Part shown: positions 866 to 49,818 of the stretch, piece by piece | How positions within the stretch are numbered: position 1 is the first letter of the stretch | How the letters are laid out: every line of letters begins with the position of its first letter | DNA from: Escherichia phage vB_EcoS-DELF2 | Length of the DNA: 50,168 bases | Reading direction: 5' to 3' (one strand) | Sequence record: NC_049832.1 | Made by a program: the position numbers and the translations under genes | The notes under the pieces: generated by a model | Seen by the model: only the letters and a program-made list of their open reading frames with translations | What the model was told of the DNA's origin: nothing | Databases searched by the model: none

Positions 866-896
866 TAATAAAAAAGCCGTGATTATGTTCACGGCT
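866..896 (-). terminator. hairpin (GCCGTG-N8-CACGGC) followed by T-run on minus transcript
   Basis: Plus strand reads ataaaaaa then inverted repeat; lies between decoration-like gene and capsid gene. Confidence 0.5.
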
Positions 897-939
897 TCAA
901 TAATAGCACTTTTTGTTAAAGCGTCAAAGTATTTTTGTG

Positions 940-1707
940 TTATGACTCTTCTTCTTCGGCTGGCGCAGCATCAAAAACATAAGTGATCGATTCTTTAGTT
1001 TTGCTGGCATCGTTAGCCGTCCAATTTACGATTACGCTACCTGCCGCATCTCCACCAATTGGAGTAAGAACGCCAGATTTTGGATCTATTGTCGCAATAT
1101 TTTCAGCATCAACAGACCACACGCCAGTTTTATCGGTGGCATTGTCAGGTTTTACAGCAACGTTAAATTGCACAGGTGCATTGTTTGGCTGAGGACTCTC
1201 CTTGTTAGTTGTAATCGTCGCAGACTCAACAAGAACCACGGGAGGTGGTGGAGGTGGAACAATAAAGGCATTTTGCTTAACCTGAACCTCAATAATGTAC
1301 CCGTCCTCGTGCTTAACAAATCCACCAGAAAAAGTCCAACCTACGGAACCAGAGCTACCAGTAACAACACCACCAGATCCAAATTGTAACTTTGAGAACA
1401 AGGCCGGAGCTTCATCAAGAGAAGTTAGCGTCCACACGCGACCATGAGAAACGACGTTGCAAACTTCACCGTCGAGGATTTTACCGCTCAGGTGTTCATA
1501 TTGGGAACGGAAAGCGATTCCGTAAGGTGTTTCACCATCAGTAAGCGTGGAAACAACCTTAACGCCGTCAACAATACCGATAACTTTAACAGCGGAGCCG
1601 AACTCAATATCGCCTTGAGCAACACAAGATCCATCAATATTGTAGGTTGAAGTATCCGAAAGATTACCAGGGCACGCCGGGCGTAACATTAAATTTTCGT
1701 AAGGCAT
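940..1707 (-). CDS. head decoration-like structural protein with poly-Pro linker and C-terminal Ig-like domain
   Basis: N-terminal domain paralogous to 1767..2243 (YNIDG.CV, PYG.A.RS, SGRVW.L motifs); PPPPPPP linker; beta-rich C-terminus. Confidence 0.45.
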   Translation of the reverse strand: MPYENLMLRPACPGNLSDTSTYNIDGSCVAQGDIEFGSAVKVIGIVDGVKVVSTLTDGETPYGIAFRSQYEHLSGKILDGEVCNVVSHGRVWTLTSLDEAPALFSKLQFGSGGVVTGSSGSVGWTFSGGFVKHEDGYIIEVQVKQNAFIVPPPPPPVVLVESATITTNKESPQPNNAPVQFNVAVKPDNATDKTGVWSVDAENIATIDPKSGVLTPIGGDAAGSVIVNWTANDASKTKESITYVFDAAPAEEEES

Positions 1708-1719
1708 AGTATTTTCTCC

Positions 1720-1750
1720 ATAAAAAAAGGACTACCCAAAAGGATAGTCC
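1720..1750 (-). terminator. hairpin (GGACTA...TAGTCC) plus T-run on minus transcript
   Basis: Plus strand aaaaaaa then inverted repeat between the two paralogous genes. Confidence 0.5.
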
Positions 1751-1766
1751 CCATATTAAACACTAA

Positions 1767-2243
1767 TTACAGTTGATGCAACTGAACTTCAACAAGCTGA
1801 ATGTCTTTATATTTGGTCCAGCCGCCAGCGTAGGTCCAAGTTGTTTCGATCGTACCATCAGATTTCTCTTGACCGTCAACGTCAAGTTTTACAGCTGTCC
1901 CGAAAGTTGGTGCTTCTTCTGATTTGGAAAGCATCCAGACTCGCCCGGAGGTCATGACGTTGATAGCACCGCCATCTTCGTAAATCATCTGATTATCTTT
2001 GTTCACAGTCTGCCAGTGAGATCGAATAGCTACGCCATACGGCACTTTAGACGATTCCATAGCCTTAACCAATTTATGGCCGTCAACGGCTTGGGCTTGA
2101 ACAACCTGTACGGCAGCGCCAACAAAAACATCACCTTCGTTAACGACGCAAGCGCCATCAATATTATACTTCGAAGTATCCGCAACCATACCCGGAAGCG
2201 CAATGGCCATGTCTCGCTGATAAGATGCATTAATCTGTGCCAT
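1767..2243 (-). CDS. head decoration-like structural protein (tandem paralog of 940..1707)
   Basis: Shared N-terminal motifs with 940..1707; head-module position. Confidence 0.45.
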   Translation of the reverse strand: MAQINASYQRDMAIALPGMVADTSKYNIDGACVVNEGDVFVGAAVQVVQAQAVDGHKLVKAMESSKVPYGVAIRSHWQTVNKDNQMIYEDGGAINVMTSGRVWMLSKSEEAPTFGTAVKLDVDGQEKSDGTIETTWTYAGGWTKYKDIQLVEVQLHQL

Positions 2244-2254
2244 GATATTTCCCC

Positions 2255-3367
2255 TTACATTACTTTGCTTAAACGTGAATTTGGCGTAACAGGTGCGGCG
2301 TCGTTTTTCTCTTCCGGCTTACCGCCTTCGATAGAATCGCCTTTTACCGCCTTACGCTGAATAGCCATAATATCAGAATCCTTAGCAACATCAAACATAG
2401 CGTCGATATATGCGTCTGATTTTTCGCTAACATCTTTATCAAGCATGGCTTTGACAACAGCTACCTTAACGTCTTTGATATCAAGACCATCATGCTTAAC
2501 GCCTGCGGTTTCCGCTACTGCGGTGACTTCAGCACGCGCTGCGGCGTCAGCTTTTTGCTTCTCTACTTCGGCCTTCACCAGTTCCGGCAGTGAGTCAACC
2601 TTAACCTTCAGCGCATCGCGCTCAGCTTCGAAGCCATCAGCTTTCCCCTGAATGGCGGCAATCTGCGCGGTTAATTTTTCGATATGGTTCGCAACATCTT
2701 CGGTCACTTCCACATCAACTGAGTCGATCTTAATTTTTTTCATTTTCTTGTCCTCGTTAGTTAATTGAACGTTATTATCATACGGGAACTCCTGCTCGGC
2801 ATCAAGGTTTAATTTAGCAATTCCAGCGCGACCCTTGAAAACAAGTGCAATGTGGTTTACCTTGATGTTTGTTTGAACAGCATCGAATTTAACCCAACCT
2901 TCAGGCGGCGCTTCGTCCTGTTTCATATCCTCTTCGAAGATATATTCTCCAGTCTCATTTGAACCCCATCCCGGCTTATCAATATCTACTGACGTGTAGC
3001 CAACAGATAATTCACCAGCTTCTTTTGCTTTAGCCTTGCTGATCGCGTAGTCGCTGTAAATGCTCAAAGGGACTTCAACTCCAACACCTGAAGCAATACC
3101 AGCGCCAGCGCACGATCCTACAACAACGTCCTTAGCATTTTGGGGAGTCACCGTTACGTGACCGACCGTGATCGGCTTGCCTGCAAAACTTTGCAAGGAA
3201 TCTTGCTTGAAAACTTCGGACGCCGGACGGAACTCAACGCGATCGCCGTGTGGAGTCTTGTAAACCTGAGCACCGATTCGCGCCACGATGGGACGGTCAA
3301 CCAAAAAACCATTATCATCAAAGTGCGCCTTGATTTTTACGGAATCGAATCTTTGTTTTGCCTTCAT
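2255..3367 (-). CDS. prohead protease/scaffolding protein (coiled-coil C-terminus)
   Basis: Position between head morphogenesis and decoration/capsid genes; Ala/Lys/Glu-rich coiled-coil tail; AGGAG RBS before internal ATG at 3367. Confidence 0.5.
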   Translation of the reverse strand: MKAKQRFDSVKIKAHFDDNGFLVDRPIVARIGAQVYKTPHGDRVEFRPASEVFKQDSLQSFAGKPITVGHVTVTPQNAKDVVVGSCAGAGIASGVGVEVPLSIYSDYAISKAKAKEAGELSVGYTSVDIDKPGWGSNETGEYIFEEDMKQDEAPPEGWVKFDAVQTNIKVNHIALVFKGRAGIAKLNLDAEQEFPYDNNVQLTNEDKKMKKIKIDSVDVEVTEDVANHIEKLTAQIAAIQGKADGFEAERDALKVKVDSLPELVKAEVEKQKADAAARAEVTAVAETAGVKHDGLDIKDVKVAVVKAMLDKDVSEKSDAYIDAMFDVAKDSDIMAIQRKAVKGDSIEGGKPEEKNDAAPVTPNSRLSKVM

Positions 3368-3369
3368 TT

Positions 3370-5404: not shown

Positions 5405-5414
5405 ACTTTCCCTC

Positions 5415-5444
5415 CAATAAAAAAGGCCGTCAATTGACAGCCTT
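5415..5444 (-). terminator. weak hairpin containing perfect palindrome GTCAATTGAC, plus T-run (possible attenuator or binding site)
   Basis: aaaaaaGGCCGTCAATTGACAGCC between terminase large subunit and portal. Confidence 0.3.
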
Positions 5445-5460
5445 GATTATATCTCATTTA

Positions 5461-7044: not shown

Positions 7045-7068
7045 GTGGGCGCTCGCGCGCCCCTAACG

Positions 7069-7593: not shown

Positions 7594-7644
7594 AAATACA
7601 TCCTCTTTGTTTAACATTTAGTGCTATTTTACCATATTGCAGGC

Positions 7645-7669
7645 ATAAAAAAACCCGCCGGAGCGGGTT
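7645..7669 (-). terminator. intrinsic terminator hairpin AACCCGCC-GGAG-CGGGTT plus T-run
   Basis: Between 7678..7905 and terminase small subunit; followed by TGgTAAAAT extended -10-like element. Confidence 0.6.
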
Positions 7670-8092: not shown

Positions 8093-8398
8093 CTTCCTGC
8101 GCCTTAATCATAACGCCAGCAATGCGACCAATAACAGCCTCGCCAGGATTTAATCGTTTTTTATAACGAGTGGTTTCACCGTTGCGAGTTACTTTAATTT
8201 CAATTTTTACTGTTTCATCTTTAGTGTTTTGCATTATGCAATCCTCTTGAATTTTTGCCGCTTACGGGTCTGCGGCGTTGCTTAACCACTATGCAACCGA
8301 GCTTGTTATCTGGAAGTGTGAGAATCGTCTCACGCGTTGCGCTTAGTTGCGCCTCGTCTGTCTACGGGATTAATACTATCACCGCTCAGGGATTTAGG

Positions 8399-9382: not shown

Positions 9383-9439
9383 TTCGATTTTCTCTCTTCG
9401 TTGTCGATGAGGTAACTATATCAAATCACCCCACCGACG

Positions 9440-9458
9440 TTTTAGCAATTCGTGCTAT
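9440..9458 (-). promoter_or_regulatory. palindrome motif copy (plus-strand text TTTTAGCAATTCGTGCTAT) with extended -10 TGaTATAGT 19 nt downstream
   Basis: Read directly; upstream gene stop codon TAG embedded in motif. Confidence 0.55.
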
Positions 9459-10027
9459 TTGTTGATGAACGTGGCGGCTATGTGCTGAGCGGTAATTTCT
9501 GGATTACCTTCGACAGAAAAGAAGTCACATTCCTGATAACCGTTGACCCCGATCATATCGTCAAGATAGATATAGTCGCGGCTGTCGTTGTCAAAGTTGC
9601 AACCGTTGCGATGGATTCGACATAGCTTTACCTGGATATCACCTTCAATCATCTGCAAGATCTCGTCTTTGAATCCACCGTCAGTAAATACCGAAAGGGA
9701 GTGAGACTCTTTCACCTTGCTTTCCGCTCGCATACCGAAGAAGCGATTTCCGAACTGCGGTTTGATGACCTCCTCGCTAATCCAGATCATAAACTGGCGC
9801 GGGCTTTTACCGTTCAGGATTGATGCTGGCTCTTCTTTATAGCGACGGTCCTCATACAAGAACATGAAATATTCGAAATTAGCCTCACCCAGGATTGCTC
9901 GAGCAATCTCAAACATTGGAGCTTTGAAGCTGCGTAGCGCTACATGATCGTAAGTGTCAGCCAGGATGCATCCGATAGTGTCTTTTCCTGCGCCCGGCGC
10001 GCCGTTTAAAATGATAGCTGTTTTCAT
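9455..10027 (-). CDS. P-loop nucleotide kinase (adenylate-kinase-like GAPGAGKDT)
   Basis: N-terminal P-loop NGAPGAGKDT. Confidence 0.55.
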   Translation of the reverse strand: MKTAIILNGAPGAGKDTIGCILADTYDHVALRSFKAPMFEIARAILGEANFEYFMFLYEDRRYKEEPASILNGKSPRQFMIWISEEVIKPQFGNRFFGMRAESKVKESHSLSVFTDGGFKDEILQMIEGDIQVKLCRIHRNGCNFDNDSRDYIYLDDMIGVNGYQECDFFSVEGNPEITAQHIAATFINK

Positions 10028-10135: not shown

Positions 10136-10669
10136 TCATTCATCTACCCCGTGAGATTTTAAATGATCGTGGACTTTATCGCCATAGTCAACTACAGCGT
10201 AAGTGGTTATTCCAAGCGACCGGAATAATGGAATAATTTGCGGTGAGTCATCCCAGGCCGCCAGGATATTCTCAATACCGATCGCGCGCACCGCCTCTTC
10301 TTTCATCACCGTGTCTTTGCGGTTGTCGGTATGCGGTCGCATAATCAGGTAATCATATCGAGCACCGTGATGCTTAAGCCATAACTCATATGCGTAACGA
10401 ACCTCATCGCTTCGCCCGGTTAAAATGATCACATGATGACCAGCGGCAAACATAGAGTTCATCACTTCAATCGTACTCTTGATTGGGTTATCAAATATTG
10501 CCGCTCGGTTAAACTCAGACCAGCTTTCAGTTAAGTGCAAATCCTTTGTCGGTAGCAGGTGAAGTAGACCAGATCCATCGCTAAGTGTTCCGTCAAAGTC
10601 AAAGATTGCTACGCGGCGAGTGCCGAGAAACAGGCTGATTGTCTTGCCCCAAATGGTAATTTTATCCAT
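10136..10669 (-). CDS. HAD-superfamily phosphatase
   Basis: HAD motif I FDFDGTL near N-terminus; adjacent to the kinase. Confidence 0.55.
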   Translation of the reverse strand: MDKITIWGKTISLFLGTRRVAIFDFDGTLSDGSGLLHLLPTKDLHLTESWSEFNRAAIFDNPIKSTIEVMNSMFAAGHHVIILTGRSDEVRYAYELWLKHHGARYDYLIMRPHTDNRKDTVMKEEAVRAIGIENILAAWDDSPQIIPLFRSLGITTYAVVDYGDKVHDHLKSHGVDE

Positions 10670-10734: not shown

Positions 10735-10753
10735 TTTTAGCAATTCGTGCTAT
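10735..10753 (-). promoter_or_regulatory. palindrome motif copy with TGaTAGAAT -10, then CAACCAATCAGAGGA leader
   Basis: Read directly; 19-nt spacing to -10. Confidence 0.55.
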
Positions 10754-11632: not shown

Positions 11633-12289
11633 TTAAACTACGAAAAACAGCACGATAAGAGAAATAAGAAGCACGGTAGCCATAGCCAGGTTTGCCAGAT
11701 TATCAATGTCCTTGTTGGTCAGCTTAGGCTTGACTTTACCATCAACTTCGATTGGCTTAACGCTGTGAATCTTACCCTGTTCGATGCGGAAAGCGCCCTT
11801 GATTCGACTGGTATTAAATTTCTGCTTCTTCTTGCCGAACGTTGCAAACTTAGTGCCGCCGCTATTCCATCGCAGACCTTCGCCATTATGCGTTACGGTA
11901 GCGATGCGGTGACGGCCCGTGTCGTCAGTAAGCGCTACAGTGTGCTTTGCGTGCTCAGTAGGAACGTCGTAGATTTTTCCAACAGTAAATTTTTTGGTGT
12001 TATCGCTGATACATTCAAATTTCATAAATTTTACCTCTTTATTATGCAGTTGATTGATTGCTTCGATTACGTCTCTAAATTTAACACCATCCACGATTCG
12101 ATGGAAGATATATTTTGAACTACCGCAATACGGCAGGAAAATTTCCTGGTACTCGTGACGACGGATGATGTTAACGTTGCTACCGTGCTCATCCACGACA
12201 ACGAAGCTGTCGTCATTGACGTGAGCGCCTTCGTAGATTTTTCCCCACTTAAAGCCCGATCCGTTACTTGATACGCATTCAAATTTCAC
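11633..12289 (-). CDS. repeat-domain protein with C-terminal transmembrane anchor
   Basis: Internal duplication (MKFECVSSNGSGFKWGKIYEG / MKFECISDNTKKFTVGKIYDV); hydrophobic C-terminus. Confidence 0.45.
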   Translation of the reverse strand: MKFECVSSNGSGFKWGKIYEGAHVNDDSFVVVDEHGSNVNIIRRHEYQEIFLPYCGSSKYIFHRIVDGVKFRDVIEAINQLHNKEVKFMKFECISDNTKKFTVGKIYDVPTEHAKHTVALTDDTGRHRIATVTHNGEGLRWNSGGTKFATFGKKKQKFNTSRIKGAFRIEQGKIHSVKPIEVDGKVKPKLTNKDIDNLANLAMATVLLISLIVLFFVV

Positions 12290-12573
12290 GGTCTAACCTT
12301 CCTATAAGGCTTGATTGATAACATCACGTATTGCGTGAAGTCGCATTCCTGATCGTCATACCCGCGATTGATGTATGGAGTCACGTCTGTAACATCGGAT
12401 ACCCTGGCGTGAACTTCCCACCCGGTAAACTCACCGCGATCGAACTCTCGTAGCTCCAAGATATCGCCAATCTGGAAGTTGCGGTCATTGATGCGGAACT
12501 CTGCCGTTTTGGTTCCGTTCATTACTCCAATGAAATGTACCGGGTTAATTTTTAACTTATGACTCTTGCTCAT
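12286..12573 (-). CDS. hypothetical protein
   Basis: ORF preceded by motif copy, TATAGT -10 and CAACCAATCAG leader. Confidence 0.45.
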   Translation of the reverse strand: MSKSHKLKINPVHFIGVMNGTKTAEFRINDRNFQIGDILELREFDRGEFTGWEVHARVSDVTDVTPYINRGYDDQECDFTQYVMLSIKPYRKVRP

Positions 12574-12636
12574 GATGCCTCACTGATTGGTTGCCATTCT
12601 TCAATAAGGCCACTATATCAAATGGACTTGCGGAAG

Positions 12637-12655
12637 GTTTAGCAATTCGTGCTAT
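12637..12655 (-). promoter_or_regulatory. palindrome motif copy with TGaTATAGT -10
   Basis: Read directly; approximate coordinates. Confidence 0.5.
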
Positions 12656-12800
12656 CGTTTAACGCACATAGTTTTTACTTCATATCCGAACGGCTTGTTT
12701 TCTGCAATCACCTCCCGAGCTTTTTCGCATGATTGCTGACTTTCCATGTATACGTGATCCGACCCGGTGCTCATCAAGATAATCAAGACCCATGCAGCCA

Positions 12801-13867: not shown

Positions 13868-13923
13868 GCTATCGTCCTCGTTCGTTGTCGATGGGGTTAC
13901 TATATCGCAACCCATGAGCTGAG

Positions 13924-13942
13924 TTTTAACAAAAAGTGCTAT
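13924..13942 (-). promoter_or_regulatory. palindrome motif copy with TATAGT -10 and conserved leader TAACCCCATCGACAACGAA
   Basis: Read directly. Confidence 0.55.
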
Positions 13943-14130
13943 TCTTTAATTTCGAAGCAATCGGTGTCTTCGTCGAATATCCAGGGGTCGCCGTTATCAT
14001 CAAGTAATGAGATATTCCCGAAGCTGGTTAGCGATGCACTATAAGGCTTGTCAACGGTAAAGCACTCTTTCACCTCCTGGTCATCACTACCTTTGAATAC
14101 TGCAATCATTTGGTGCATAAAATCAGCCAT
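13939..14130 (-). CDS. hypothetical protein
   Basis: 63 aa ORF. Confidence 0.4.
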   Translation of the reverse strand: MADFMHQMIAVFKGSDDQEVKECFTVDKPYSASLTSFGNISLLDDNGDPWIFDEDTDCFEIKE

Positions 14131-14880: not shown

Positions 14881-14943
14881 GGTGAATCCTCTGATTGGTA
14901 TCTCATTTCGATGGGGTAACTATAGCAAGATACCCCGATCCGG

Positions 14944-14962
14944 TTTTAACAATTCGTGCTAT
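14944..14962 (-). promoter_or_regulatory. palindrome motif copy with TGcTATAGT -10
   Basis: Read directly. Confidence 0.55.
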
Positions 14963-15429
14963 TTGGTGAGATATTTCACGCAGCTTCCGGCAGTTTCATT
15001 CCAGCCATCCTCAAAGAATACGCTATAGCATGTTGCCGAACGCTGGCGAATCTTAGATACAGTGCGCCACACCTTACGGCCCGAGTAACCAGTCAGCACG
15101 CGCATCCCTGGCAATAACTCACCCGACTTTCTCACCTTGATAGTCACATCAGCATCAAGCCCGAACGACTCAAGGCGAACAGGATTGACCATCTCAAACA
15201 TTCGCATAACTTCGTGATCTTCTTTCCACTCGCAGCCGCCGCTAGCCTTAACCGCTTCAACAAAATAACTCAGCTTATCAGTGAGTGAATCACCTTCGAA
15301 CGCCTCGATTGAGATAACCGTGTAGTGAGTGTACGCATGCCAGTGCGATCCGGTCTTGTGCTCAAACGCGAAGAATGACATTTCGCCATCAAGCTCATCT
15401 TTAGCCAGGAATACGGTAATGGTCGCCAT
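14959..15429 (-). CDS. hypothetical protein
   Basis: 156 aa ORF. Confidence 0.45.
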   Translation of the reverse strand: MATITVFLAKDELDGEMSFFAFEHKTGSHWHAYTHYTVISIEAFEGDSLTDKLSYFVEAVKASGGCEWKEDHEVMRMFEMVNPVRLESFGLDADVTIKVRKSGELLPGMRVLTGYSGRKVWRTVSKIRQRSATCYSVFFEDGWNETAGSCVKYLTK

Positions 15430-15626: not shown

Positions 15627-15682
15627 CTTCGCTTCCTCATTCGTTGTCGATGGGATAACTATACCAGGTTATCCCGATCCGG

Positions 15683-15701
15683 TTTTAACAAAAAGTGCTA
15701 T
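15683..15701 (-). promoter_or_regulatory. palindrome motif copy with TGgTATAGT -10
   Basis: Read directly. Confidence 0.55.
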
Positions 15702-15958
15702 TTCATCAAAGTGAAGCAGCGAATTTTATTTGGCTTGAATAGGAATAGCTGGATGCCTTGCACCTTACCAAGACTGATCATCTCTACGCCAAACTGTTTA
15801 CGCACATACCGGACCAGCTCATCGGCTGGCGAACTCATCTGTAGTCCGAGGCGATAGAAACCGACAAACCCGTATGTTTCGGGGTTAAGCTGGAATGCCT
15901 CACCTGGATTGAGTTGCATCAATACACCTTTCAGGGCGTCATGCTTAATTTTGCTCAT
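15698..15958 (-). CDS. hypothetical protein
   Basis: 86 aa ORF. Confidence 0.4.
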   Translation of the reverse strand: MSKIKHDALKGVLMQLNPGEAFQLNPETYGFVGFYRLGLQMSSPADELVRYVRKQFGVEMISLGKVQGIQLFLFKPNKIRCFTLMK

Positions 15959-16536: not shown

Positions 16537-17230
16537 TTGTCTATACCTCGTTGTCTATGGGTGTAACTTTCAACTTCGAAAAACATGTTACAGCTACAAA
16601 GTCAGGAGCGTCAATGTCTATAGCTGCATTTTTTATTTTTGTAACCAGTGCAACCGATGCAACCGACTTTTTCTATAAAAGTAAGCACATCTATTTATGC
16701 GCGCGGAATGGTATGTTTTTTATACTATGCATCACGAAATATATGCCACCCTCAAAAAATGCGGTTGCACCTATTACGCCGATTACATACCAATATATAA
16801 TATAATAAATAAATAAATATATATTATCTATCTTATTATTATATATAGATATTTTATTATCTATAGGCCTATCGATTCTCGGGCCACTTTGTAACACCCC
16901 TGATGGTATACAACTATTACGACAATTACAACTACCGCATAGACGAATAGCACGTTTTGCTAAAAATGGAGATTACCACCAGGCGAACTGGGTAACACTA
17001 AATCCTCCCTCTCACAATCATTGCAATCTAAGCAACAAATCAACCGACTGTTGCACACCATGCAATAATCACGTTTCATCATTCGCAATCAATCACAATC
17101 AAAATTATTCCAACTATTCCAGCATTGATGTAATAATGAGCAATTATTGGAATAGCATTTTTTGCTAACGACTGGACCAGGTTGGCAGGGTATAGTTCTG
17201 GCCATCAACCAATCAGAAGAGGAAGCAGCA
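16537..17230. repeat. AT-rich divergent intergenic region with iteron-like repeats and two motif copies lacking or displaced from -10
   Basis: TTGTCTAT x2, TGTAAC/GTTACA, ATATTATCTATC, inverted TATCTAT/ATAGATA; motif copies at about 16947 and 17152. Confidence 0.5.
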
Positions 17231-17416
17231 ATGAAATTAATTTGGTCACTATTCGACGGTTCAGGACTTGCTGGTCATGAACTGGCAAGGCAAGGTCACA
17301 AGGTGATGTGCTTCAACTTTGACGGAGCAGATCACGGAGATTACGCAAAGTACAACGCCAGGGTTGAGCATCCTAACATTGAGTATGTGAACGTCTTTAT
17401 TGATGAGAAGTTCTAA
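17231..17416 (+). CDS. C5-cytosine DNA methyltransferase-like, N-terminal fragment (motif I FDGSG) ending at in-frame TAA
   Basis: ATG at 17231 preceded by CAACCAATCAGAAGAGGAAG leader; TAA at 17414..17416 in same frame as downstream ORF. Confidence 0.35.
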   Translation: MKLIWSLFDGSGLAGHELARQGHKVMCFNFDGADHGDYAKYNARVEHPNIEYVNVFIDEKF

Positions 17417-17434: not shown

Positions 17435-17935
17435 GTGTATGGCAAGCCTGATTTCATTATGGCATTTCCTCCATGCACTGACCTGGCTGTTAGTGGCGCT
17501 GCTCACTTAGCAAGAAAGCGTGAGCGAGATCCGTTATTCCAGGAGAAGGCTGTTGCCACCGCCAGGATTGCCGCGAATATTGGCGACGCCCTGGGAGTGA
17601 CTTACATCATTGAGAATCCTGTGAGCGTCCTGTCATCTGCCTGGCGAAAACCGAATCACTCATTCAACCCCTGGGAGTATGGCGGCTATCTTCCTGAGAA
17701 TGACGCACACACCTGGTTCCCTATGTATATTGCGCCGCGCGATGCTTATCAGAAGAAAACTTGTCTTTGGACCTCGGACGACTTTGTCATGCCGGAGAGA
17801 AAACCTGTAAACCTGCCTGACGGGTACTCTGCGCAACACAGCAAGCTTGGCGGCAAGTCGGCAAAGACGAAGCTGATACGATCCCTGTCGCCGCGTGGAT
17901 TTTTCAAAGCGATCGCAAATAGCACTTTTTGTTAA
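17435..17935 (+). CDS. C5-cytosine DNA methyltransferase-like, C-terminal part (FPPC motif IV, ENP motif VI)
   Basis: Same frame as 17231..17416; catalytic Cys motif PPCTD; no target-recognition domain obvious. Confidence 0.45.
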   Translation: MYGKPDFIMAFPPCTDLAVSGAAHLARKRERDPLFQEKAVATARIAANIGDALGVTYIIENPVSVLSSAWRKPNHSFNPWEYGGYLPENDAHTWFPMYIAPRDAYQKKTCLWTSDDFVMPERKPVNLPDGYSAQHSKLGGKSAKTKLIRSLSPRGFFKAIANSTFC

Positions 17936-17937
17936 AA
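17919..17937 (+). promoter_or_regulatory. palindrome motif copy (ATAGCACTTTTTGTTAAAA) with TGgCATAAT -10 19 nt downstream
   Basis: Motif encodes the last residues NSTFC-stop of the methyltransferase ORF. Confidence 0.55.
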
Positions 17938-18690: not shown

Positions 18691-19071
18691 ATGACAGATT
18701 CAAAACTTCAGGCAGCAATTGACCGCGCAAATGAGAAAGGTTTCACTGTTGAAATTTGCAATCGCTTGGTGGGCGGGATAATCCACCCCAGCAACCGAGT
18801 TGTTATCACTCAGCGCGATACAGGGATCAGTATCACGGATATATTCACCATTAAAGAACATCAGAGCATGATTTCTTACATCAATCGACATGTCGGATCG
18901 GTTGAGTTCGGGAGGCTGGATGGTGACGAGAAGGAGGCTATCATTGACAACCTTCTCGAAGAGGTCAGTCTCGCATTTGAAGAACGACCGGATAACGGAA
19001 CGACACGTTGGGATTGCGATAAGCTGGACGCAATAAACCGCATCCGTGAAATCCTGGAGGAAAAATTATGA
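18691..19071 (+). CDS. hypothetical protein (paralog of 18458..18688)
   Basis: QAAIDRANEKGF N-terminal motif. Confidence 0.45.
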   Translation: MTDSKLQAAIDRANEKGFTVEICNRLVGGIIHPSNRVVITQRDTGISITDIFTIKEHQSMISYINRHVGSVEFGRLDGDEKEAIIDNLLEEVSLAFEERPDNGTTRWDCDKLDAINRIREILEEKL

Positions 19072-26352: not shown

Positions 26353-26409
26353 CTTCTGATTCCTCATTTCGTTTCTATGAAATAACTATACCCGACTTTC
26401 GCCGGGTAT

Positions 26410-26428
26410 TTTTAGCAATTAGTGCTGT
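26410..26428 (-). promoter_or_regulatory. palindrome motif variant with TATAGT -10 and hairpin in spacer
   Basis: Read directly. Confidence 0.5.
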
Positions 26429-26670
26429 ACGATTGTATCAGCTTTAAGTTCTTCCACGTCTTTCTGTATGATTGAAGGCCAATTCTCTATGTATTCATTT
26501 TTTATCTCATCGAAAGACATATCAAGAGAACTAGTGAACTCCCACAGATCGCAACCAATAACATCCTGAGTCAATCCGTTTCGCTCCATAATTTCGCAGC
26601 AGGTAGCTCGATAAAGCAGCCATAAACCTTGATCAGTTAACTTAACCGGAATCATTTTCTCGTTCATCAT
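26419..26670 (-). CDS. hypothetical protein
   Basis: Start overlaps Dam stop. Confidence 0.4.
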   Translation of the reverse strand: MMNEKMIPVKLTDQGLWLLYRATCCEIMERNGLTQDVIGCDLWEFTSSLDMSFDEIKNEYIENWPSIIQKDVEELKADTIVQH

Positions 26671-27432: not shown

Positions 27433-27451
27433 TTTTAACAAAAAGTGCTAT
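27433..27451 (-). promoter_or_regulatory. palindrome motif copy with TGgCATTAT -10
   Basis: Read directly upstream of Dam gene. Confidence 0.55.
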
Positions 27452-29940: not shown

Positions 29941-29960
29941 TTTTTAGCAAAAAGTGCTAT
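29941..29960 (-). promoter_or_regulatory. palindrome motif copy upstream of helicase; overlaps RBS region of divergent plus gene
   Basis: TATTAT -10 about 18 nt downstream on minus strand. Confidence 0.45.
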
Positions 29961-29972
29961 AGGAGAATCAAG

Positions 29973-30425
29973 ATGAGTATTCAACGTATCGCAGAATCAA
30001 CTGGTGAAATCGATAAACGTCACATCAATGGTAACAACGGAACACGGCGCGGTAAAGATAAAAAGCCTCGACAGCGTTGCGGGTTCTATATTCATAAAGA
30101 AGAAACACGCGCCGGACTGCGAGCGCGACTTGATGCTCTTATCGAATATTACGGCGGCCCTGCGGCCTGCGCAAAGGCTCTAAAAGTTAGCAATCAGACG
30201 GTGCAAGGCTGGAAAGATCGAAATATGATTTCATGGCAAGGCGCTGAAGCTGCGCATCGCGCTTACCGCCGACAGGGGTGTAAAGGATTTCGTGCCGCAT
30301 GGTTGCGATTCGACCTGAAGTTTGACGGTAACGGCAAGTGCCTTGAGAAGCGATGCAAGAACAAGAAATTTATGCGCGTCGTGAAGAAGGAAGATATCGG
30401 AACTACCAATAGCATTTTTAGTTAA
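29973..30425 (+). CDS. putative DNA-binding protein (Cro/YdaS-like HTH)
   Basis: HTH-like segment GGPAACAKALKVSNQTVQGWKD; basic; last residues encoded by a motif copy. Confidence 0.4.
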   Translation: MSIQRIAESTGEIDKRHINGNNGTRRGKDKKPRQRCGFYIHKEETRAGLRARLDALIEYYGGPAACAKALKVSNQTVQGWKDRNMISWQGAEAAHRAYRRQGCKGFRAAWLRFDLKFDGNGKCLEKRCKNKKFMRVVKKEDIGTTNSIFS

Positions 30426-33400: not shown

Positions 33401-33859
33401 TCAGAATGGGATATCATCGTCAAATGTTGACTGAGGGTTCGGTTGTGGTTGTTGTTGAGTTCGCTGTTGTTGCTGAGGGTTCGGTTGTGGTTGTTGTTGA
33501 GTTCGCTGTTGTTGCTGAGGCGATCGCTGTTGTTGATTGCTTTGTCCTCGTTGACTGAATACCAGCTTAGGAAAATCAGCGGCCTGCAATGAATTGTAAA
33601 CCTTTCCGTTGTGCTCACGGGATGAGATCTTCAACGTTTCGCATGATACAGATATAACTCGACCAACCTGGAACGCTTCACGATACCAGTCAGCAAGGCC
33701 AGGCTTTCCACCATCACTAAAAAAGAATGTGTAGTTGGTGTATTCTCGATCGCCATCACGAGGTTTATAGCTCTCTGCCAGTTCGATGATATAAGTATTG
33801 CCGCCGTTACGCTCCAGAATCTTAGGTTCTTTTCGGATCTCGCCAGTGATAATATGCAT
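33401..33859 (-). CDS. ssb: single-stranded DNA-binding protein
   Basis: C-terminal acidic tail DDDIPF; Gln/Pro-rich linker with tandem repeat. Confidence 0.85.
   Translation of the reverse strand: MHIITGEIRKEPKILERNGGNTYIIELAESYKPRDGDREYTNYTFFFSDGGKPGLADWYREAFQVGRVISVSCETLKISSREHNGKVYNSLQAADFPKLVFSQRGQSNQQQRSPQQQQRTQQQPQPNPQQQQRTQQQPQPNPQSTFDDDIPF
33431..33540. repeat. 42-bp tandem repeat (about 2.5 copies) inside SSB linker
   Basis: ctgagggttcggttgtggttgttgttgagttcgctgttgttg repeated; encodes QQQRTQQQPQPNPQ twice. Confidence 0.85.
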
Positions 33860-35692: not shown

Positions 35693-36218
35693 TTCGTTTA
35701 TCTCCCTCGTTTACGATGAATCCATTATAGCCATTAACAGCGTTTAGTCAATCGAATACATGTAATTGGTGTGTAATTGCGTGTCTATATCACTCAAGTT
35801 ACAACCAGCGCCAACGGAATCAATTACTTAATCCTGTTTTTATGTGGTGTCTATTGCGTAATACTTGTAACCGCTTTTTCTTAGAAATACAAAGATATCC
35901 ATGAATAGAATCAAGATTGATTATATTTTGAACAAATATGATAGAAATTTGACGAATCAATCAAATCACCAGTTACACGATAGACAACTGTTACACAACA
36001 ATAATTATATATATAAAGCTAAAATTAAATATTATCTATCTATATATATTATATAGAGTTTTTATCACATCACCATGCGGTCGGATGGGGTGGATTTTGT
36101 AACACCTGTTCCGGTTACAAAAATAGACACCTGTTACACGAAAAAATTGTAATCGCGCTATTGCAATAAAAGTAAATGCGACATACAATGCAATCACACT
36201 AACGACGAGGACATACAA
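35693..36218. repeat. AT-rich divergent intergenic region with iteron-like repeats
   Basis: ATAGACA(A/C)CTGTTACAC x2, GTGTCTAT x2 in opposite orientation, TGTAACACCTGTT, ATATTATCTATCT. Confidence 0.5.
36160..36189 (+). promoter_or_regulatory. canonical sigma70-type promoter (TTGCAA-17-TACAAT) for lipoprotein gene
   Basis: Read directly; approximate coordinates. Confidence 0.5.
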
Positions 36219-36451: not shown

Positions 36452-37408
36452 ATGGGACAAGGAATATACATAAATCTAAATGACGGTCGTCCGGCAATGG
36501 AGATAACCTCTGGACTTCGCGCCCCGTCATGGTGCGGACCAATACAAGCGGACGGGGTTGATTCATCTGGATCGGTTTTTGATTTTGGTCTGCAAATGAG
36601 TCCAGGGTCTACTGCTTTTTGCCTTCCATCTCAGGCTATCTACATAGACGATATGGATTACATCCCGGAGGTGTATTATTTGACCAGTTTTCAGAAGGTC
36701 AATGATTCAACCGGACGAATAACGGTAGGTAATTTTAACGGGCACGGTGGAAGGAGGATGAGATTTTATGGCAACTGTTACGAAATCCTCCCCGCTCAGG
36801 CTGGAAATCAGGGGATACTTGTTAACGATTCAACGAACTTCGCAGCGATACCGAATAACGCCAGATTGATGAGCGCTGCATTTGTTGGGGGGATTCAGGT
36901 TAACGGTCAGGCTCAGTTGCCAGTACAGGGCGTTCCTTTCGGTATGTGGGATAATCCAAACGTAACACTTGAATCTGACGGCAATACAATATGGTGCAGG
37001 GATGCAAACTATAACGGGATTGATGACGTTGGCGCGAGCGTATACGTTCAACTCGTAATATTTAATAACACCCCACCACCTCCTGGGCCTGGAATAACTA
37101 TGAGTAACCCTGCTGGCCAGATCGTTTTCTCAAGCGTTAGACGCCCCTTCGTTCTTGGCGGGACTATGGCGATAAATGATGGTTGGCAGTGGTGCGGTGG
37201 ATTTTTCCCAATACTGAGAACAGGTACGATATGCAGAGTTACAGGTGGATATAATAACATTCGATACAAGGGCGTTTGCATGAGCGGCGGTAACGTGAGA
37301 AGCGCACCAGGAACAAGGGTAGGTAACTATTCTACTCAGAGCGGCGCTCAATTTCCCTTCAATATAAACATTTCAATGCCAATTCCTTTCACTCCAAACA
37401 TGTATTAA
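36452..37408 (+). CDS. putative receptor-binding protein
   Basis: Gly/Asn-rich beta-type protein encoded between the lipoprotein and the J-like gene. Confidence 0.4.
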   Translation: MGQGIYINLNDGRPAMEITSGLRAPSWCGPIQADGVDSSGSVFDFGLQMSPGSTAFCLPSQAIYIDDMDYIPEVYYLTSFQKVNDSTGRITVGNFNGHGGRRMRFYGNCYEILPAQAGNQGILVNDSTNFAAIPNNARLMSAAFVGGIQVNGQAQLPVQGVPFGMWDNPNVTLESDGNTIWCRDANYNGIDDVGASVYVQLVIFNNTPPPPGPGITMSNPAGQIVFSSVRRPFVLGGTMAINDGWQWCGGFFPILRTGTICRVTGGYNNIRYKGVCMSGGNVRSAPGTRVGNYSTQSGAQFPFNINISMPIPFTPNMY

Positions 37409-37412
37409 AAAA

Positions 37413-37428
37413 GGGGCCGATCGGCCCC
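37413..37428. terminator. bidirectional terminator GGGGCC-GATC-GGCCCC
   Basis: Between convergent receptor-binding and J-like genes. Confidence 0.7.
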
Positions 37429-37434
37429 TTTCTG

Positions 37435-40884: not shown

Positions 40885-40932
40885 GATGTTTACCTTTTTG
40901 TGCTATTTATCGGTGGACTCATTATACAGGCG

Positions 40933-40957
40933 AAAAAAAACCCGCGCAAGGCGGGTT
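40933..40957 (-). terminator. hairpin AACCCGC-GCAAG-GCGGGTT plus T-run
   Basis: Between I-like and J-like genes; near-identical to element at 43113. Confidence 0.5.
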
Positions 40958-43071: not shown

Positions 43072-43112
43072 TTTCTTTTCCTCTTGTTTAGTTGCAACCA
43101 TTCTACAGCTAC

Positions 43113-43133
43113 AAAAAAACCCGCGCAAGGCGG
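43113..43133 (-). terminator. hairpin CCCGC-GCAAG-GCGGG with A/T runs both sides
   Basis: Between M-like and L-like genes. Confidence 0.5.
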
Positions 43134-43150
43134 GCTTTTGTCATGAGGTG

Positions 43151-43504: not shown

Positions 43505-43506
43505 TA

Positions 43507-46380: not shown

Positions 46381-46397
46381 ATAACCCCCTATATACG

Positions 46398-46420
46398 AAA
46401 AAACCGCCAGACGGCGGCTT
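46398..46420 (-). terminator. hairpin CCGCC-GTCT-GGCGG plus T-run
   Basis: Between T-frame ORF and tape measure start. Confidence 0.5.
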
Positions 46421-46688: not shown

Positions 46689-46735
46689 TTGTTCCTCTGT
46701 TGGCGGCTTCTGATATAACAGATAGACCGCCTTTT

Positions 46736-47053
46736 TTAGTTTTTTGCGCGGTGTCCGGCAAGAGCCTTGATGTAAGTCGCTGTCAGGTTGTACGCTGCTG
46801 AAGGATAATACTGAACCAGTTTTCGCGCATTTTCTTCGTTAAATTCTTCTTCAAGGTTCCATCCTGACGCGATCTTGGTAATGAACTCGCTGTCGTTCAT
46901 TTCTCCCTGGTTGGCATACATATCCTGAACTTCTTTACTGGAAAGGTGGCGTACAGTGAAAATGATCGTTGCATCTTCACCGTTAGGCATGGTGAAGGTA
47001 ACTGGAAGTTTGAAGTCTGGAAGTTGACCAAGAATAAAATTAAATTTAGCCAT
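46736..47053 (-). CDS. tail assembly chaperone (lambda G-like)
   Basis: Between major tail and tape measure; ends with AAAAAAC slippery heptamer; AACCAATCAGGAG leader. Confidence 0.65.
   Translation of the reverse strand: MAKFNFILGQLPDFKLPVTFTMPNGEDATIIFTVRHLSSKEVQDMYANQGEMNDSEFITKIASGWNLEEEFNEENARKLVQYYPSAAYNLTATYIKALAGHRAKN
46739..46745 (-). other. -1 programmed ribosomal frameshift slippery heptamer A_AAA_AAC
   Basis: Last codons GCA AAA AAC TAA; -1 frame continues into 46419..46688. Confidence 0.6.
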
Positions 47054-47127
47054 GATATTTCTCCTGATTGGTTAATGGCACTTTTTGTTAAAAGAGAATA
47101 GTGCAAACTTGATACGATGATTTTACA

Positions 47128-47156
47128 GAAATGAATAAGGGGGCGCAAGCCCCCTT
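47128..47156 (-). terminator. hairpin GGGGGC-GCAA-GCCCCC after major tail gene
   Basis: Read directly. Confidence 0.6.
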
Positions 47157-47167
47157 GTGGATATGAT

Positions 47168-47836
47168 TTAGGCACCAGGTGATGCCAGAGCGGATGAAAC
47201 GAAAGTGAAATCACCCTTCAGGGATACGGCGAGTTGTACCGTTTCCATTTCGTTTACTTGCGTAGATGGAATGTCGTTAAAAGACAAGATACCAGCCCAC
47301 ATGCGCATCTCGTTCGCTTTTGGAACATACATCCGAACCGCAGTTACCTGACCAGAAGAATCCAGCTTACGCAGAATAGGGTAGATCGGGTTATCAAATT
47401 CGTGCGCGAATGTGTAAGTTAGCGAGATCGCAGATTTAAACGTTGGGATCTGCTGTTCTTTATCGTCGGACAAGCACTGATAAGTGTAATACTGCTGCTC
47501 GCCGCCGTCCTGACCAATCTCCTGTACGCAAGGAATCTCAGTCCAGCCAGTAATTTTTGCAAAGCTCATCGTACCGCCAGCCGGGAAAACAAGAGTATCA
47601 GAGGTGTCAATCCCAGCGAGAGTGATGCTTGTTTCCTGAGCGTCAGTAACAATTAGCACTCGACTGACCATATTGGCCCAGGTTGACTGAGTTACAATAA
47701 CGTAATCGCCTTTTACTAAGTCACCCTTAGATGCAACTGTAGCAACAGGATTTTCTGCGTTAGTAATAGCGGTTGCCTCAATCTCTTCTCCGCGAGAGGT
47801 TTCCACGAAAATTTGCGCGCCATTTGGTAAGTGCAT
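47168..47836 (-). CDS. major tail protein
   Basis: Upstream of chaperone and tape measure; AAGGAG RBS before ATG 47836; terminator after gene. Confidence 0.7.
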   Translation of the reverse strand: MHLPNGAQIFVETSRGEEIEATAITNAENPVATVASKGDLVKGDYVIVTQSTWANMVSRVLIVTDAQETSITLAGIDTSDTLVFPAGGTMSFAKITGWTEIPCVQEIGQDGGEQQYYTYQCLSDDKEQQIPTFKSAISLTYTFAHEFDNPIYPILRKLDSSGQVTAVRMYVPKANEMRMWAGILSFNDIPSTQVNEMETVQLAVSLKGDFTFVSSALASPGA

Positions 47837-47838
47837 AA

Positions 47839-48237
47839 TTAAGTCTCCTTTGTGTCTACTCGTACTGTAAAGCGAACCGGAATCATCCACCCGCTTTCAT
47901 GTTTAACAATTTGATGCACGATTGCACCCTCGAAAATATAACCAACGTTAAGCATTTTACCATCTTTGAAAAAATCAGCAATCTCTTTTGCTTTCAATCT
48001 TGCTTCGTCAACGCCGGATCCTGGAGGGAACACTACTCCGATCTGAACGATTGCGATGTAAGATTTACACTTCCTGTCAATGGATAGATAAAGCGTATCC
48101 CCTTCAATGTAGTTGAACCTCAGCCACATCCCGCCATCCTTCGGCGGTATGAAATTTCTGTTTTCCATGTAGTGAGGAAAGTCTCTGTACTTTGATAGAA
48201 AAGCGGCTCGCGCCGCCGCTGATAACTCATAGTGCAT
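47839..48237 (-). CDS. tail terminator-like protein (putative)
   Basis: Position immediately upstream of major tail gene. Confidence 0.4.
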   Translation of the reverse strand: MHYELSAAARAAFLSKYRDFPHYMENRNFIPPKDGGMWLRFNYIEGDTLYLSIDRKCKSYIAIVQIGVVFPPGSGVDEARLKAKEIADFFKDGKMLNVGYIFEGAIVHQIVKHESGWMIPVRFTVRVDTKET

Positions 48238-48766
48238 TTTGCTGTCTCCTTGCCTGCTTGATTGCGTCAGCCATATATGATCTCAGCCTTAATGCCACAA
48301 GGCCGACAACGCCGCTCGGTGCTTGCTGTGAATGACCGTACTCAAGAGCGTTTGCATAAATCAACATGTTTGAAAAGTGAACGGATGTTATCGCGCCGCC
48401 ACGGCTGAACATGCCATAAGTTTTTGCCTGTTCCTCACCCCTGACGACACCGCCAGTTTTATCGTATCGGTTTAATGCGTGGTTAGGGATTTCGTTAAAA
48501 GTTATCTGCCAGTTACCCTTGAATCGACCTGTATCAACAGGGGATCGGCTAACAAGAGCGTCGTGAACATCCCTTACGAATATTTCAATGGCATGTTCTA
48601 ACGTGCTTTCAGCGGCCTTAATCCACGCATCAATCTCGCCTTGAAATCTACGAATCTGATAATTAGCCACCGACTGATACCCTCCGTAATACTGGACGAT
48701 AGGCGACTGGTTCCAGTGACGCCTGAACCGGGCGAGCATCAACGACAACATGACGAATGCCATCAA
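48227..48766 (-). CDS. tail completion/neck protein (HK97 gp10-like); true start probably GTG near 48670
   Basis: VDTGRFKGNW motif; GGAGGG RBS before internal GTG. Confidence 0.5.
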   Translation of the reverse strand: MMAFVMLSLMLARFRRHWNQSPIVQYYGGYQSVANYQIRRFQGEIDAWIKAAESTLEHAIEIFVRDVHDALVSRSPVDTGRFKGNWQITFNEIPNHALNRYDKTGGVVRGEEQAKTYGMFSRGGAITSVHFSNMLIYANALEYGHSQQAPSGVVGLVALRLRSYMADAIKQARRQQNAL

Positions 48767-49043
48767 TCTCTATATAGTCACCTTCTTTTATTTCATGATC
48801 ATTATTGAAGATCCCCAAAAGGTCTGAGGCGCGGATAGTTTCCCCGTCAATCTCACGCGCGTTCGGTCTTCTCGTCGCGCCGGATATTGGAATAACCTGT
48901 TCCATTGGTGGGATCTCGAATCCGTTTTCATCATATCCGTATTCAACTTGTTTTATCAGGCTCATAGGTCTTGAAGGATCGGTGAAGAAAGCCACGCCTT
49001 TGCGAGCCATTCTTTCAATCTGTGAGTAGTTCATTAGTGGCAT
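48663..49043 (-). CDS. head closure / head-tail joining protein (putative)
   Basis: Position in neck module. Confidence 0.4.
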   Translation of the reverse strand: MPLMNYSQIERMARKGVAFFTDPSRPMSLIKQVEYGYDENGFEIPPMEQVIPISGATRRPNAREIDGETIRASDLLGIFNNDHEIKEGDYIEIDGIRHVVVDARPVQASLEPVAYRPVLRRVSVGG

Positions 49044-49444
49044 CCTCCACGGAGTCCTGTCATTAATGCGAATCTACCACGGCGTCGCGCTTTAAGCTGT
49101 TCGAACATCTTACCCCACGGCGTCGAAAGCATCATGTTTCCTGACTGGTTCTTCGTAACCTCTCCGAAAGTCTGGCTAAATTCACCACTCAGGGAGAATG
49201 ACGTAACGCGTCGTGAGTACGATTCAAGATCCTCATCTTCACCTTTTAGCGCCCCATCAAGGAAAGCAAGGTGCAATGCATAAAGAGCAAGCGCCTTGAC
49301 GTATGCATCTTTAAATGTCTTCTGGCATACAAATAGCTCAGCCATTTCTACCCATGCATAAAGCGTTTCGTCTGGAACATTGCGAAGTGCCGGAACCAGC
49401 TTTCTCATTTGCTCGACCACTTTGTTTAATGTTTCTTGATCCAT
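49034..49444 (-). CDS. head-tail connector/adaptor protein (putative)
   Basis: Position after capsid gene; GGTGG RBS before ATG 49444. Confidence 0.4.
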   Translation of the reverse strand: MDQETLNKVVEQMRKLVPALRNVPDETLYAWVEMAELFVCQKTFKDAYVKALALYALHLAFLDGALKGEDEDLESYSRRVTSFSLSGEFSQTFGEVTKNQSGNMMLSTPWGKMFEQLKARRRGRFALMTGLRGGCH

Positions 49445-49454
49445 AATTTCCACC

Positions 49455-49480
49455 TATAAAAAAGGCGCATTAAGCGCCTT
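49455..49480 (-). terminator. hairpin AAGGCGC-ATTAA-GCGCCTT plus T-run
   Basis: Read directly. Confidence 0.55.
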
Positions 49481-49485
49481 GTTGA

Positions 49486-49776
49486 TTAATAGTATTCGCC
49501 GCCGTCTTCAAGCTCTTTTACGCTCATCTTATCCCACGGATCAGGTTTTTTAAGTTTAGCCATCTCTGCGCGGATTTCCCGGTTGGTGGCACTGTCGTCT
49601 TTTACTTCGATTTCTTCGCGAGCAATCAAGCAACGCAGCCCGGGCAATTCAAGTGCGGATGCTGGGAGTGTCACCTCTTCATCCGGGAGAACCTTTGCGA
49701 ATGAGCCATCTTCAAGACGGAACATCTGAAGCGCTACACCAACGTTTACGATAACAACAGTTTTTTCTTTAGCCAT
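49486..49776 (-). CDS. hypothetical head-associated protein
   Basis: 96 aa ORF between capsid gene and connector. Confidence 0.4.
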   Translation of the reverse strand: MAKEKTVVIVNVGVALQMFRLEDGSFAKVLPDEEVTLPASALELPGLRCLIAREEIEVKDDSATNREIRAEMAKLKKPDPWDKMSVKELEDGGEYY

Positions 49777-49789
49777 TTTGATTTCTCCA

Positions 49790-49818
49790 ATAAAAAAGGG
49801 ACCAACTAAGTTAGTCCC
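49790..49818 (-). terminator. strong terminator GGGACTAACT-T-AGTTGGTCCC plus TTTTTTATTGG after capsid gene
   Basis: 10-bp stem with one mismatch. Confidence 0.7.

Follow-up and report, generated by a model that had tools for sequence, protein, structure and literature searches.

T1-like phages are rich in annotated terminators: their genome papers routinely list 17-21 of them and few promoters (PMC4070988). In PMC11447400, the T1 late region is described as a series of modules ("transcriptons") that are bounded by terminators and hold RpoD promoters, a model credited there to Roberts, Martin and Kropinski (2004; PMID 14972552). The same paper reports no polymerase or sigma gene for phage TLS (PMC11447400). 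Here, we address how a virulent siphovirus without its own RNA polymerase or sigma factor, and with no recognized antiterminator, expresses 20 kb of structural genes through about eleven terminators. We analyzed the 50,168-nt record of Escherichia phage vB_EcoS-DELF2 (NC_049832.1; this whole stretch is hereafter called the window), in which minus-strand hairpins with T-runs separate the structural genes. Judged by their sequence, these elements are very probably genuine Rho-independent terminators, and most of them are overlapped by conserved promoter-like elements.

In phiX174, there are three constitutive promoters, and four intrinsic terminators lie between structural genes. T_J, T_F and T_G block 20-40% of transcription and T_H about 70%, the transcript steps match protein stoichiometry, and the pA promoter is located immediately before the T_H stem (bioRxiv 10.1101/2020.03.05.979765).

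The window is a complete T1-like genome of ~49,937 bp that wraps on itself, with positions 1-231 repeated at 49938-50168. By megablast, the window is 92-95% identical to T1 and to two Shigella phages, Sfin-1 and phi2457T, and by sequence it belongs to Tunavirus, family Drexlerviridae. The two terminal copies differ at five positions (3, 4, 187, 190 and 216); the left copy yields a TGA that cuts the major capsid open reading frame (ORF) to 281 amino acids (aa), and the right copy yields the full 319 aa. The mismatches have the look of an artefact at the ends of the record, arising from assembly or from the population. We used the right-hand copy; joining position 1 to 49937 gave a stop codon in the capsid gene. 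The structural genes are all on the minus strand and, because the window wraps, they form one contiguous late block of ~20.9 kb (Table 1). Late gene names were carried over by tblastn from the curated T1 record.

Terminators between the structural genes

A first-pass annotation, made from the letters of the window alone, had listed ten minus-strand terminator-like elements between structural genes. All ten were recovered, each intergenic, on the coding strand and co-directional with the genes, 1-19 nt past the upstream stop codon. The stems comprise 7-11 bp with 5-6 G-C pairs. In the folding-energy calculation that had been proposed as a check, the ten sites gave -11.9 to -16.9 kcal/mol, with z scores of -2.4 to -5.6 against dinucleotide shuffles. 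A clean T-run lies 3' of the stem at nine of the ten sites; the exception, 47156-47137, has a strong stem with the tail TTATTCATTT.

To count such elements, we defined a strict terminator as a perfect stem of at least 6 bp with at least 4 G-C pairs, a loop of 3-8 nt and a T-run. A permissive RNAfold-based finder, whose output was sloppy at 44-61 hits per strand, was dropped in favor of this definition. On the minus strand there are 18 strict elements, compared with 0.9 ± 1.0 in 40 dinucleotide shuffles, and on the plus strand 7, compared with 1.7 ± 1.1. The first-pass annotation had omitted two of the elements, namely 37433-37408, which follows the J-like gene, and 48220-48202, which lies within a gene. 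The latter is identical in T1, absent from more distant relatives and probably incidental. An Rfam scan of the whole window returned nothing at gathering thresholds.

We compared the late region of the window with those of 12 further Drexlerviridae (13 genomes in total), representing Tunavirus, Hanrivervirus, Henuseptimavirus, Tlsvirus, Warwickvirus, Nouzillyvirus, Webervirus, Rogunavirus, Veterinaerplatzvirus and an unclassified Tempevirinae member. The major tail proteins of these relatives share 51-71% identity with that of the window, except that of T1, which shares 96%. Scoring was done at nine junctions: before TerS, TerL–portal, decoration-to-capsid, capsid-to-connector, major tail protein (MTP)–G, T–tape measure protein (TMP), M–L, I–J and after J. 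A strict terminator was present in 111 of the 117 junction cells. The stem sequences vary by lineage (after the capsid gene, for example, AGGGACTAAC..., GGGGAATCC..., AAAAGCGCC... and AGCCCTC...), and the window and T1 differ by a pair-preserving change in the TerL–portal stem (A-U to G-C). Because the elements recur at the same junctions despite this turnover of their stems, and because shuffles yield only ~1 strict hit per 50 kb per strand, there is strong evidence that hairpin and T-run are under selection. For this argument we used positional recurrence against the shuffle background instead of covariation counts; the hairpins had been chosen for perfect pairing, which would make covariation circular.

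The density of these elements had been called unusual. It is indeed about twofold above that of comparable phages, but normal for the family: with 12 strict hits in its 20.9 kb (0.58/kb), the late block falls within the range of the 13 Drexlerviridae (0.43-0.59/kb), whereas three outgroup siphophages have 0.25-0.39/kb and the lambda nu1-J region has 0.26/kb, with three intergenic strict hits in 19 kb. The terminator finding itself is also already known and ordinary for the family, since terminators have been annotated in T1 since 2004, and likewise in the record of Klebsiella phage Sin4. T1 counterparts are annotated for all ten sites, nine in RefSeq NC_005833, which keeps the original annotation, and the tenth in GenBank AY216660, an updated record that also adds a promoter upstream of the capsid gene. 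By tblastn mapping, the T1 terminators fall at identical junctions. Terminators that follow the major capsid gene and the major tail gene are also seen in the three outgroups and, weakly, in lambda, which fits the stoichiometry control suggested in the first pass.

Three elements (7645, 40933 and 43113) had been described as near-identical copies, and they do form one repeat family with the shared core AACCCGC...GCGGGTT. Their likeness can be explained by a shared constraint to combine a G-C stem, TTGCGC in the loop, a T-run and a -10 box. We considered a mobile or duplicated element and rejected it, since distant phages show this solution again at the corresponding junctions. The family is also unlike repetitive extragenic palindromic (REP) elements: the core is common to the three copies only, the other stems are unrelated, and orthologous stems differ among phages.

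Promoter-like elements overlapping the terminators

Printing every junction across the phages revealed two stereotyped promoter-terminator geometries. The embedded type occurs at MTP–G, M–L and I–J. Here the loop and 3' arm of the hairpin hold a hexamer (TTGCGC, TTGTGC or TTCACA) resembling a -35 element, and the remainder of the 3' arm together with the T-run forms a 16-17-nt spacer that leads to a TAnAAT -10. The abutting type occurs between the Ig-domain gene and the major capsid protein gene (Ig–MCP), at MCP–orf46 and at TerL–portal, where the -10 ends 0-1 nt before the stem (900/898, 49820/49819 and 5446/5444 in the window).

Both geometries are strongly enriched. Among 82 late terminators from eight phages, 20 carried an embedded promoter and 14 an abutting one, compared with ~2.4 and ~1.4 expected from background density, and these cases cluster at the same junctions in all lineages. 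As controls, overlapping promoters were found at none of six terminators in lambda, at none of the 13 non-late terminators of the window, and at two of 19 in the outgroups, both just upstream of the capsid gene. Across 37 anchored cases from the 13 genomes, TTG was present in 26, a -10 matching at least 5/6 in 30 and a 17-nt spacer in 33. The Ig–MCP and MCP–orf46 promoters pass a consensus scan.

Conservation at single junctions points in the same direction. At I–J, the -10 TA.AAT is invariant and stands 17 nt from the loop hexamer in 13/13 genomes, while the adjacent bases vary freely; the embedded geometry is present at MTP–G in 11/13 genomes and at M–L in 10/13. A strong promoter precedes the capsid gene in 13/13 phages. 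The arrangement TTGnnn-17-TAnnAT recurs at the MCP–orf46 position in seven further phages (T1, Henu8, GS156, tonnikala, Pocis76, Samwise and phSE-2), and a TAnAAT or TAAACT box lies 0-1 nt before the hairpin in all ten relatives that have the TerL–portal terminator. Moreover, the loops are TTGCG or TTTGTG at embedded junctions, compared with UUCG- or UACG-type loops at promoter-less ones (e.g. T–TMP), a difference that fits a -35 constraint at the embedded junctions.

These findings suggest that the late region is probably not a single co-directional operon blocked by terminators, as the first-pass annotation had supposed. Conserved sigma-70-like promoter elements overlap the terminator at six of the ten junctions, and a -10 follows the terminator before TerS. 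Because of the overlapping elements at their junctions, the J, L, G, portal and capsid genes could each be transcribed afresh.

Only three junctions are promoter-less: T–TMP, orf46–connector and decoration–Ig. At these, the ribosome-binding site (RBS) of the next gene lies ~6-12 nt past the T-run, and without an intervening promoter the essential tape measure and connector genes would have to be expressed by read-through. The stop-to-stem distance is 1-17 nt at these junctions. In the work of Li et al., tR2 was repressed almost completely at a few bp past a translated stop codon, and its efficiency peaked, at ~0.9, only beyond ~30 bp (PMC4824070). Given the short distances and the tR2 precedent, leaky termination would be expected while the upstream gene is being translated, with the terminating ribosome hindering hairpin folding and thus permitting read-through.

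At T–TMP, the first two bases of the stem fall within the TAA that ends the frameshift product T (a distance of 1 nt, found in 11/13 genomes), and the stop codon of G lies 318 nt upstream of the stem. The T1 record annotates a joined G/T frameshift product. The terminator could then be gated by the -1 frameshift: only a lead ribosome that had slipped at AAAAAAC would reach the TAA at the foot of the hairpin and block its folding, while ribosomes that end at the G stop codon would not prevent termination. Frameshift frequency would thereby be coupled to transcription of the tape measure gene and of the tail genes beyond it. We offer this gating as a tentative idea and regard it as rather unlikely.

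Overall, these results favor, with somewhat better than even confidence, a late region in which leaky terminators and re-initiation set transcript levels stepwise and largely without a regulator. Host sigma-70 RNA polymerase would read the 20.9 kb as about eight short units. The terminators would act as partial stops and not as absolute ones, requiring no antiterminator, and re-initiation at promoters physically overlapping them would feed the downstream genes. At abutting junctions, a start ~7 nt past the -10 would fall in the 5' arm, and the new RNA, lacking a complete hairpin, would escape, whereas transcripts arriving from upstream would carry the full hairpin and be stopped. Taken by itself, without the frameshift gating, the idea that the Drexlerviridae late region is a regulator-free cascade of composite terminator-promoter cassettes appears to us about evenly balanced. 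In the first-pass annotation, terminators ahead of essential genes had posed a puzzle, as they would block them; this largely dissolves, because most junctions own promoter elements and the other three lie where ribosomes would weaken termination.

The embedded design also occurs outside the Drexlerviridae, in Klebsiella phage K70PH128C1 (L008 7562-7578), with the hairpin GCCCGCCTTGCGCGGGC and TTGCGC-17-TATCAT. This phage is an unrelated siphophage, in which the cassette sits shortly before the major head gene, and the design may be more widespread. Three relatives carry insertions of HNH homing endonuclease genes at or next to late junctions: between TerS and TerL in BECP10, between TerL and portal in P818, and past the portal gene in Sin4. 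The BECP10 insert is preceded by an abutting promoter-terminator cassette of its own (TTGATA-16-TATAAT).

Table 1 Features of the late region and of related repeats, in window coordinates unless a relative is named. The late block is followed by its junctions in order of transcription.
Feature	Position	Strand	Details
Late block	TerS (true start 7593) down through position 1, then 50168 down to the J-like gene (40884-37435)	-	
Terminator upstream of TerS gene	7645..7669	-	hairpin 7669-7652 AACCCGCTCCGGCGGGTT + T7; -12.8 kcal/mol; T1 8322-8344; strict form in 12/13 relatives
Extended -10 TGGTAAAAT	7626..7634	-	~18-20 nt past the T-run, before TerS; box (mostly TGnTAnAAT) kept in 8/8 phages inspected
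-10 box TATAAT, abutting	5446..5451	-	ends 1 nt before the TerL–portal hairpin
Terminator TerL–portal	5417..5444	-	hairpin 5444-5423 + TTTTAT; -15.3 kcal/mol; RefSeq T1 10545-10573; present in 10/13 relatives
Terminator after decoration gene	1720..1752	-	hairpin 1752-1727; adjoins RBS of Ig-domain gene; -16.9 kcal/mol; annotated in T1
Major capsid promoter TTGACG-16-TGcTATTAT	900..927	-	10/12 matches + TG; spacer is a reversed DR motif copy (903-921); T1 GenBank promoter 15062-15089
Hairpin + T-run at Ig–MCP	866..898	-	hairpin 898-873; -15.0 kcal/mol, z -5.6; begins 1 nt after the capsid promoter -10, predicted start inside its 5' arm; T1 GenBank 15095-15121
Promoter-like TTGTCT-17-TATTAT, capsid gene end	49820..49848	-	-10 ends 0 nt before the 49819 hairpin
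Terminator after major capsid gene	49790..49819	-	hairpin 49819-49797; -14.1 kcal/mol; annotated in T1; at least one strict terminator in the capsid-to-connector span in 13/13 relatives, also after the capsid gene in three outgroups
Terminator after orf46	49455..49480	-	hairpin 49480-49462; adjoins RBS of first connector gene; -12.0 kcal/mol; annotated in T1
Intragenic hairpin AGCGGCGGCGCGAGCCGCT + T-run TTTCTATC	48220-48202	-	in U-like tail terminator gene
Hairpin after major tail gene + embedded TTGCGC-17-TAAAAT (47148-47120)	47120..47156	-	hairpin 47156-47137; -15.7 kcal/mol; RefSeq T1 18770-18796
Reversed DR copy, leader of G chaperone gene	47075..47093	-	kept in 4/8 phages
Slippery heptamer AAAAAAC, G/T -1 frameshift	46739..46745	-	just before G stop codon 46738-46736
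Terminator before tape measure gene	46394..46420	-	hairpin 46420-46401; -12.3 kcal/mol; in 13/13 genomes
M–L terminator + embedded TTGCGC-17-TAGAAT (43128-43100)	43100..43139	-	hairpin 43139-43115; annotated in T1
I–J terminator + embedded TTGCGC-17-TATAAT (40949-40921)	40921..40957	-	hairpin 40957-40939; annotated in T1
DR motif copy ATAGCACAAAAAGGTAAAC, predicted 5' leader of J-like gene	40888..40906	-	kept in 7/8 phages inspected
Bidirectional terminator after J-like gene, end of late block	37402..37433	both	-19.2 kcal/mol; T1 equivalent annotated
DR motif examples	9440-9458, 10735-10753, 13924-13942, 16947-16965, 17919-17937, 27433-27451, 29942-29960		
HNH inserts in relatives	L007 3343-3837; L011 5699-6223; L005 6811-7305		

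Alternative explanations and other repeats

A different account would be temporal gating, in which the terminators stop unmodified host polymerase efficiently early on, and a T1-encoded factor that homology does not reveal makes the polymerase terminator-resistant late in infection, with one or a few long transcripts reading through the whole region. Eleven efficient-looking terminators in series, with strong stems and long T-runs, would otherwise greatly cut distal expression, and lambda Q and N and Xp10 p7 are precedents; the lambda hairpins around the capsid gene are read through by Q-modified polymerase. In the first pass no Q-like antiterminator had been recognized, and none was recognized here: a PHROGs scan of 60 non-structural ORFs found no antitermination family, the curated T1 annotation contains none, and a Pfam scan of four candidate proteins found no antitermination family either. 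The PHROGs scan gave one Cro/C2-like regulator (29973-30425). Temporal gating also predicts neither the conserved promoter elements over six junctions nor the short stop-to-stem distances, and a single late promoter upstream, equipped with a qut- or nut-like site, was not found. We consider it unlikely. One early gene, the minus-strand ORF 12289-12573 (95 aa), carries the PHROGs label "RNA-binding protein", matches PDB 3iuw and is the sole RNA-related candidate among the early genes. It was rejected as an antiterminator, being a DUF3850/ASCH-like (PUA-like) protein with no known link to antitermination.

The elements might instead serve mainly RNA stability or processing, shielding processed segments at their 3' ends, or downstream segments at their 5' ends, from exonucleases and giving each gene block its own mRNA half-life instead of halting the polymerase. 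Protection of upstream mRNA by stable 3' stem-loops is known (e.g. PMC11696848), the TerL–portal hairpin of Sin4 persists without a T-run, and in the window the T-run of the MTP–G hairpin is poor. However, a stabilizer alone would not need the T-run that follows the stem in 111 of 117 cells, and at the very junction where the T-run of the window is degenerate, eight of the other Drexlerviridae genomes examined have a clean one. Neither an Rfam family nor a long duplex of the RNase III type was found. The roles of terminator and stabilizer are compatible; stability as the main function seems quite improbable to us. A last reading, in which the elements are chance palindromes or DNA-level sites (module boundaries, protein-binding palindromes or mobile repeats), could appeal to the core shared by three copies and to the HNH endonuclease genes at some junctions in relatives. 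The excess of strict elements over shuffles, the strict strand polarity with a T-run always downstream, and stems that change by junction and lineage while keeping their pairing all speak against it, and the shared core is explained by the embedded TTGCGC-17-TAnAAT constraint. This reading is close to refuted.

Several points weigh against leaky termination with re-initiation, the explanation we favor. The embedded -35 hexamers match the consensus at only 3/6 positions (TTG only), below the scan threshold of 4/6 per hexamer, although their -10 boxes match at 5-6/6 with 17-nt spacing and the class is ~8-fold enriched. The TerL–portal -10 lacks a convincing -35. Since the 13 genomes are related to one another, their counts are not independent events. 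Using strict criteria, the 2024 re-annotation of TLS accepted three sigma-70 promoters only and did not affirm the transcriptons (PMC11447400), and our search of the literature on T1-like phages found no 5'- or 3'-end mapping or transcriptomic data. About 36 small early ORFs are without known function, any one of which could encode an unrecognized antiterminator or RNA polymerase modifier, a point that also counts in favor of temporal gating. Finally, late timing is left unexplained by promoters that look constitutive; a repeated motif, DR, which lies near four of the late junctions, may be involved.

The DR motif is a 19-nt sequence, ATAGCACnnnTTGnTAAAA, with a partial dyad (TAGCA-N5-TGCTA). 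It occurs at 27 sites and matches the 21-nt direct repeat of TLS, T1, Rtp and Rogue1, which has no assigned function (PMC11447400). It is co-oriented with the genes in both early arms, and its copies near late junctions are at 7609-7627, 903-921 (reversed), 47075-47093 (reversed) and 40888-40906. Its position varies: around -41 relative to early promoters, within the spacer of the capsid promoter and, at J and G, inside the 5' leader. We rejected its TTGnTA as the -35 of early promoters, because 22 nt separate it from the TGnTATAGT -10, and antisense promoters at the two reversed copies, because no acceptable -10 follows. The motif also forms part of a 70-nt repeat family preceding early genes (9397-9466, 12594-12663, 13881-13950, 14901-14970, 15640-15709 and 26367-26436), in which DR is followed after ~22 nt by an extended -10, TGnTATAGT, inside a GGGGTA...TACCCC hairpin and then by the start codon.

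Three further features were observed outside the late block. Two very AT-rich 75-nt segments (16783-16857 and 35991-36065), 71% alike, each lie where the coding strand switches, and could be divergent promoter regions or replication origins. A 42-nt tandem repeat of 2.5 copies (33431-33535) in the single-strand DNA-binding protein gene encodes a Q/P-rich stretch. ORFs 17162-17413 and 17435-17932 match the N- and C-terminal parts of the DNA methyltransferase phrog_757, indicating a split or frameshifted gene.

Comparison with known systems

T1 has the same genes, junctions and hairpins as the window, at 92-96% DNA or protein identity, and its terminators are essentially alike. Its records annotate no promoters at MTP–G, M–L, I–J, MCP–orf46 or TerL–portal, and the overlap geometries described here predict these missing promoters to the nucleotide.

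Lambda shares a homologous order of head and tail genes, the tail genes of T1 resemble those of N15 and lambda, and hairpins likewise flank the lambda capsid gene E and follow J. In contrast, lambda uses one late promoter and a dedicated antiterminator, and none of its hairpins overlaps a promoter, whereas no Q-like protein was found in the window. In T7, an incompletely efficient terminator, T-phi, follows the major capsid gene 10, and the tail genes are expressed through read-through and internal promoters. T7 differs in having its own RNA polymerase, class III promoters and a single main late terminator instead of a series.

On the reading favored here, the window would resemble phiX174 in relying on host polymerase only, with no phage regulator, and in having terminators between structural genes that lower transcript levels stepwise in line with protein stoichiometry; the pA-T_H arrangement of phiX174 resembles the abutting junctions. 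phiX174 is, however, a 5.4-kb single-stranded DNA microvirus with four terminators whose activities have been measured, whereas the window is a double-stranded DNA siphovirus with eleven terminators across 20.9 kb, read here from sequence. The phiX174 paper reports the abutting overlap only, and not the embedded geometry with the -35 in the loop. If our reading is correct, the overlapping elements would be compact natural insulator cassettes of ~45 nt, each joining a terminator to a promoter, useful in phage engineering and synthetic biology, and the Drexlerviridae would be the large-genome counterpart of the phiX174 model, with stoichiometry set by transcription. By this analogy, the T1-type late region looks like the logic of phiX174 stretched to 20 kb, with the embedded geometry added.

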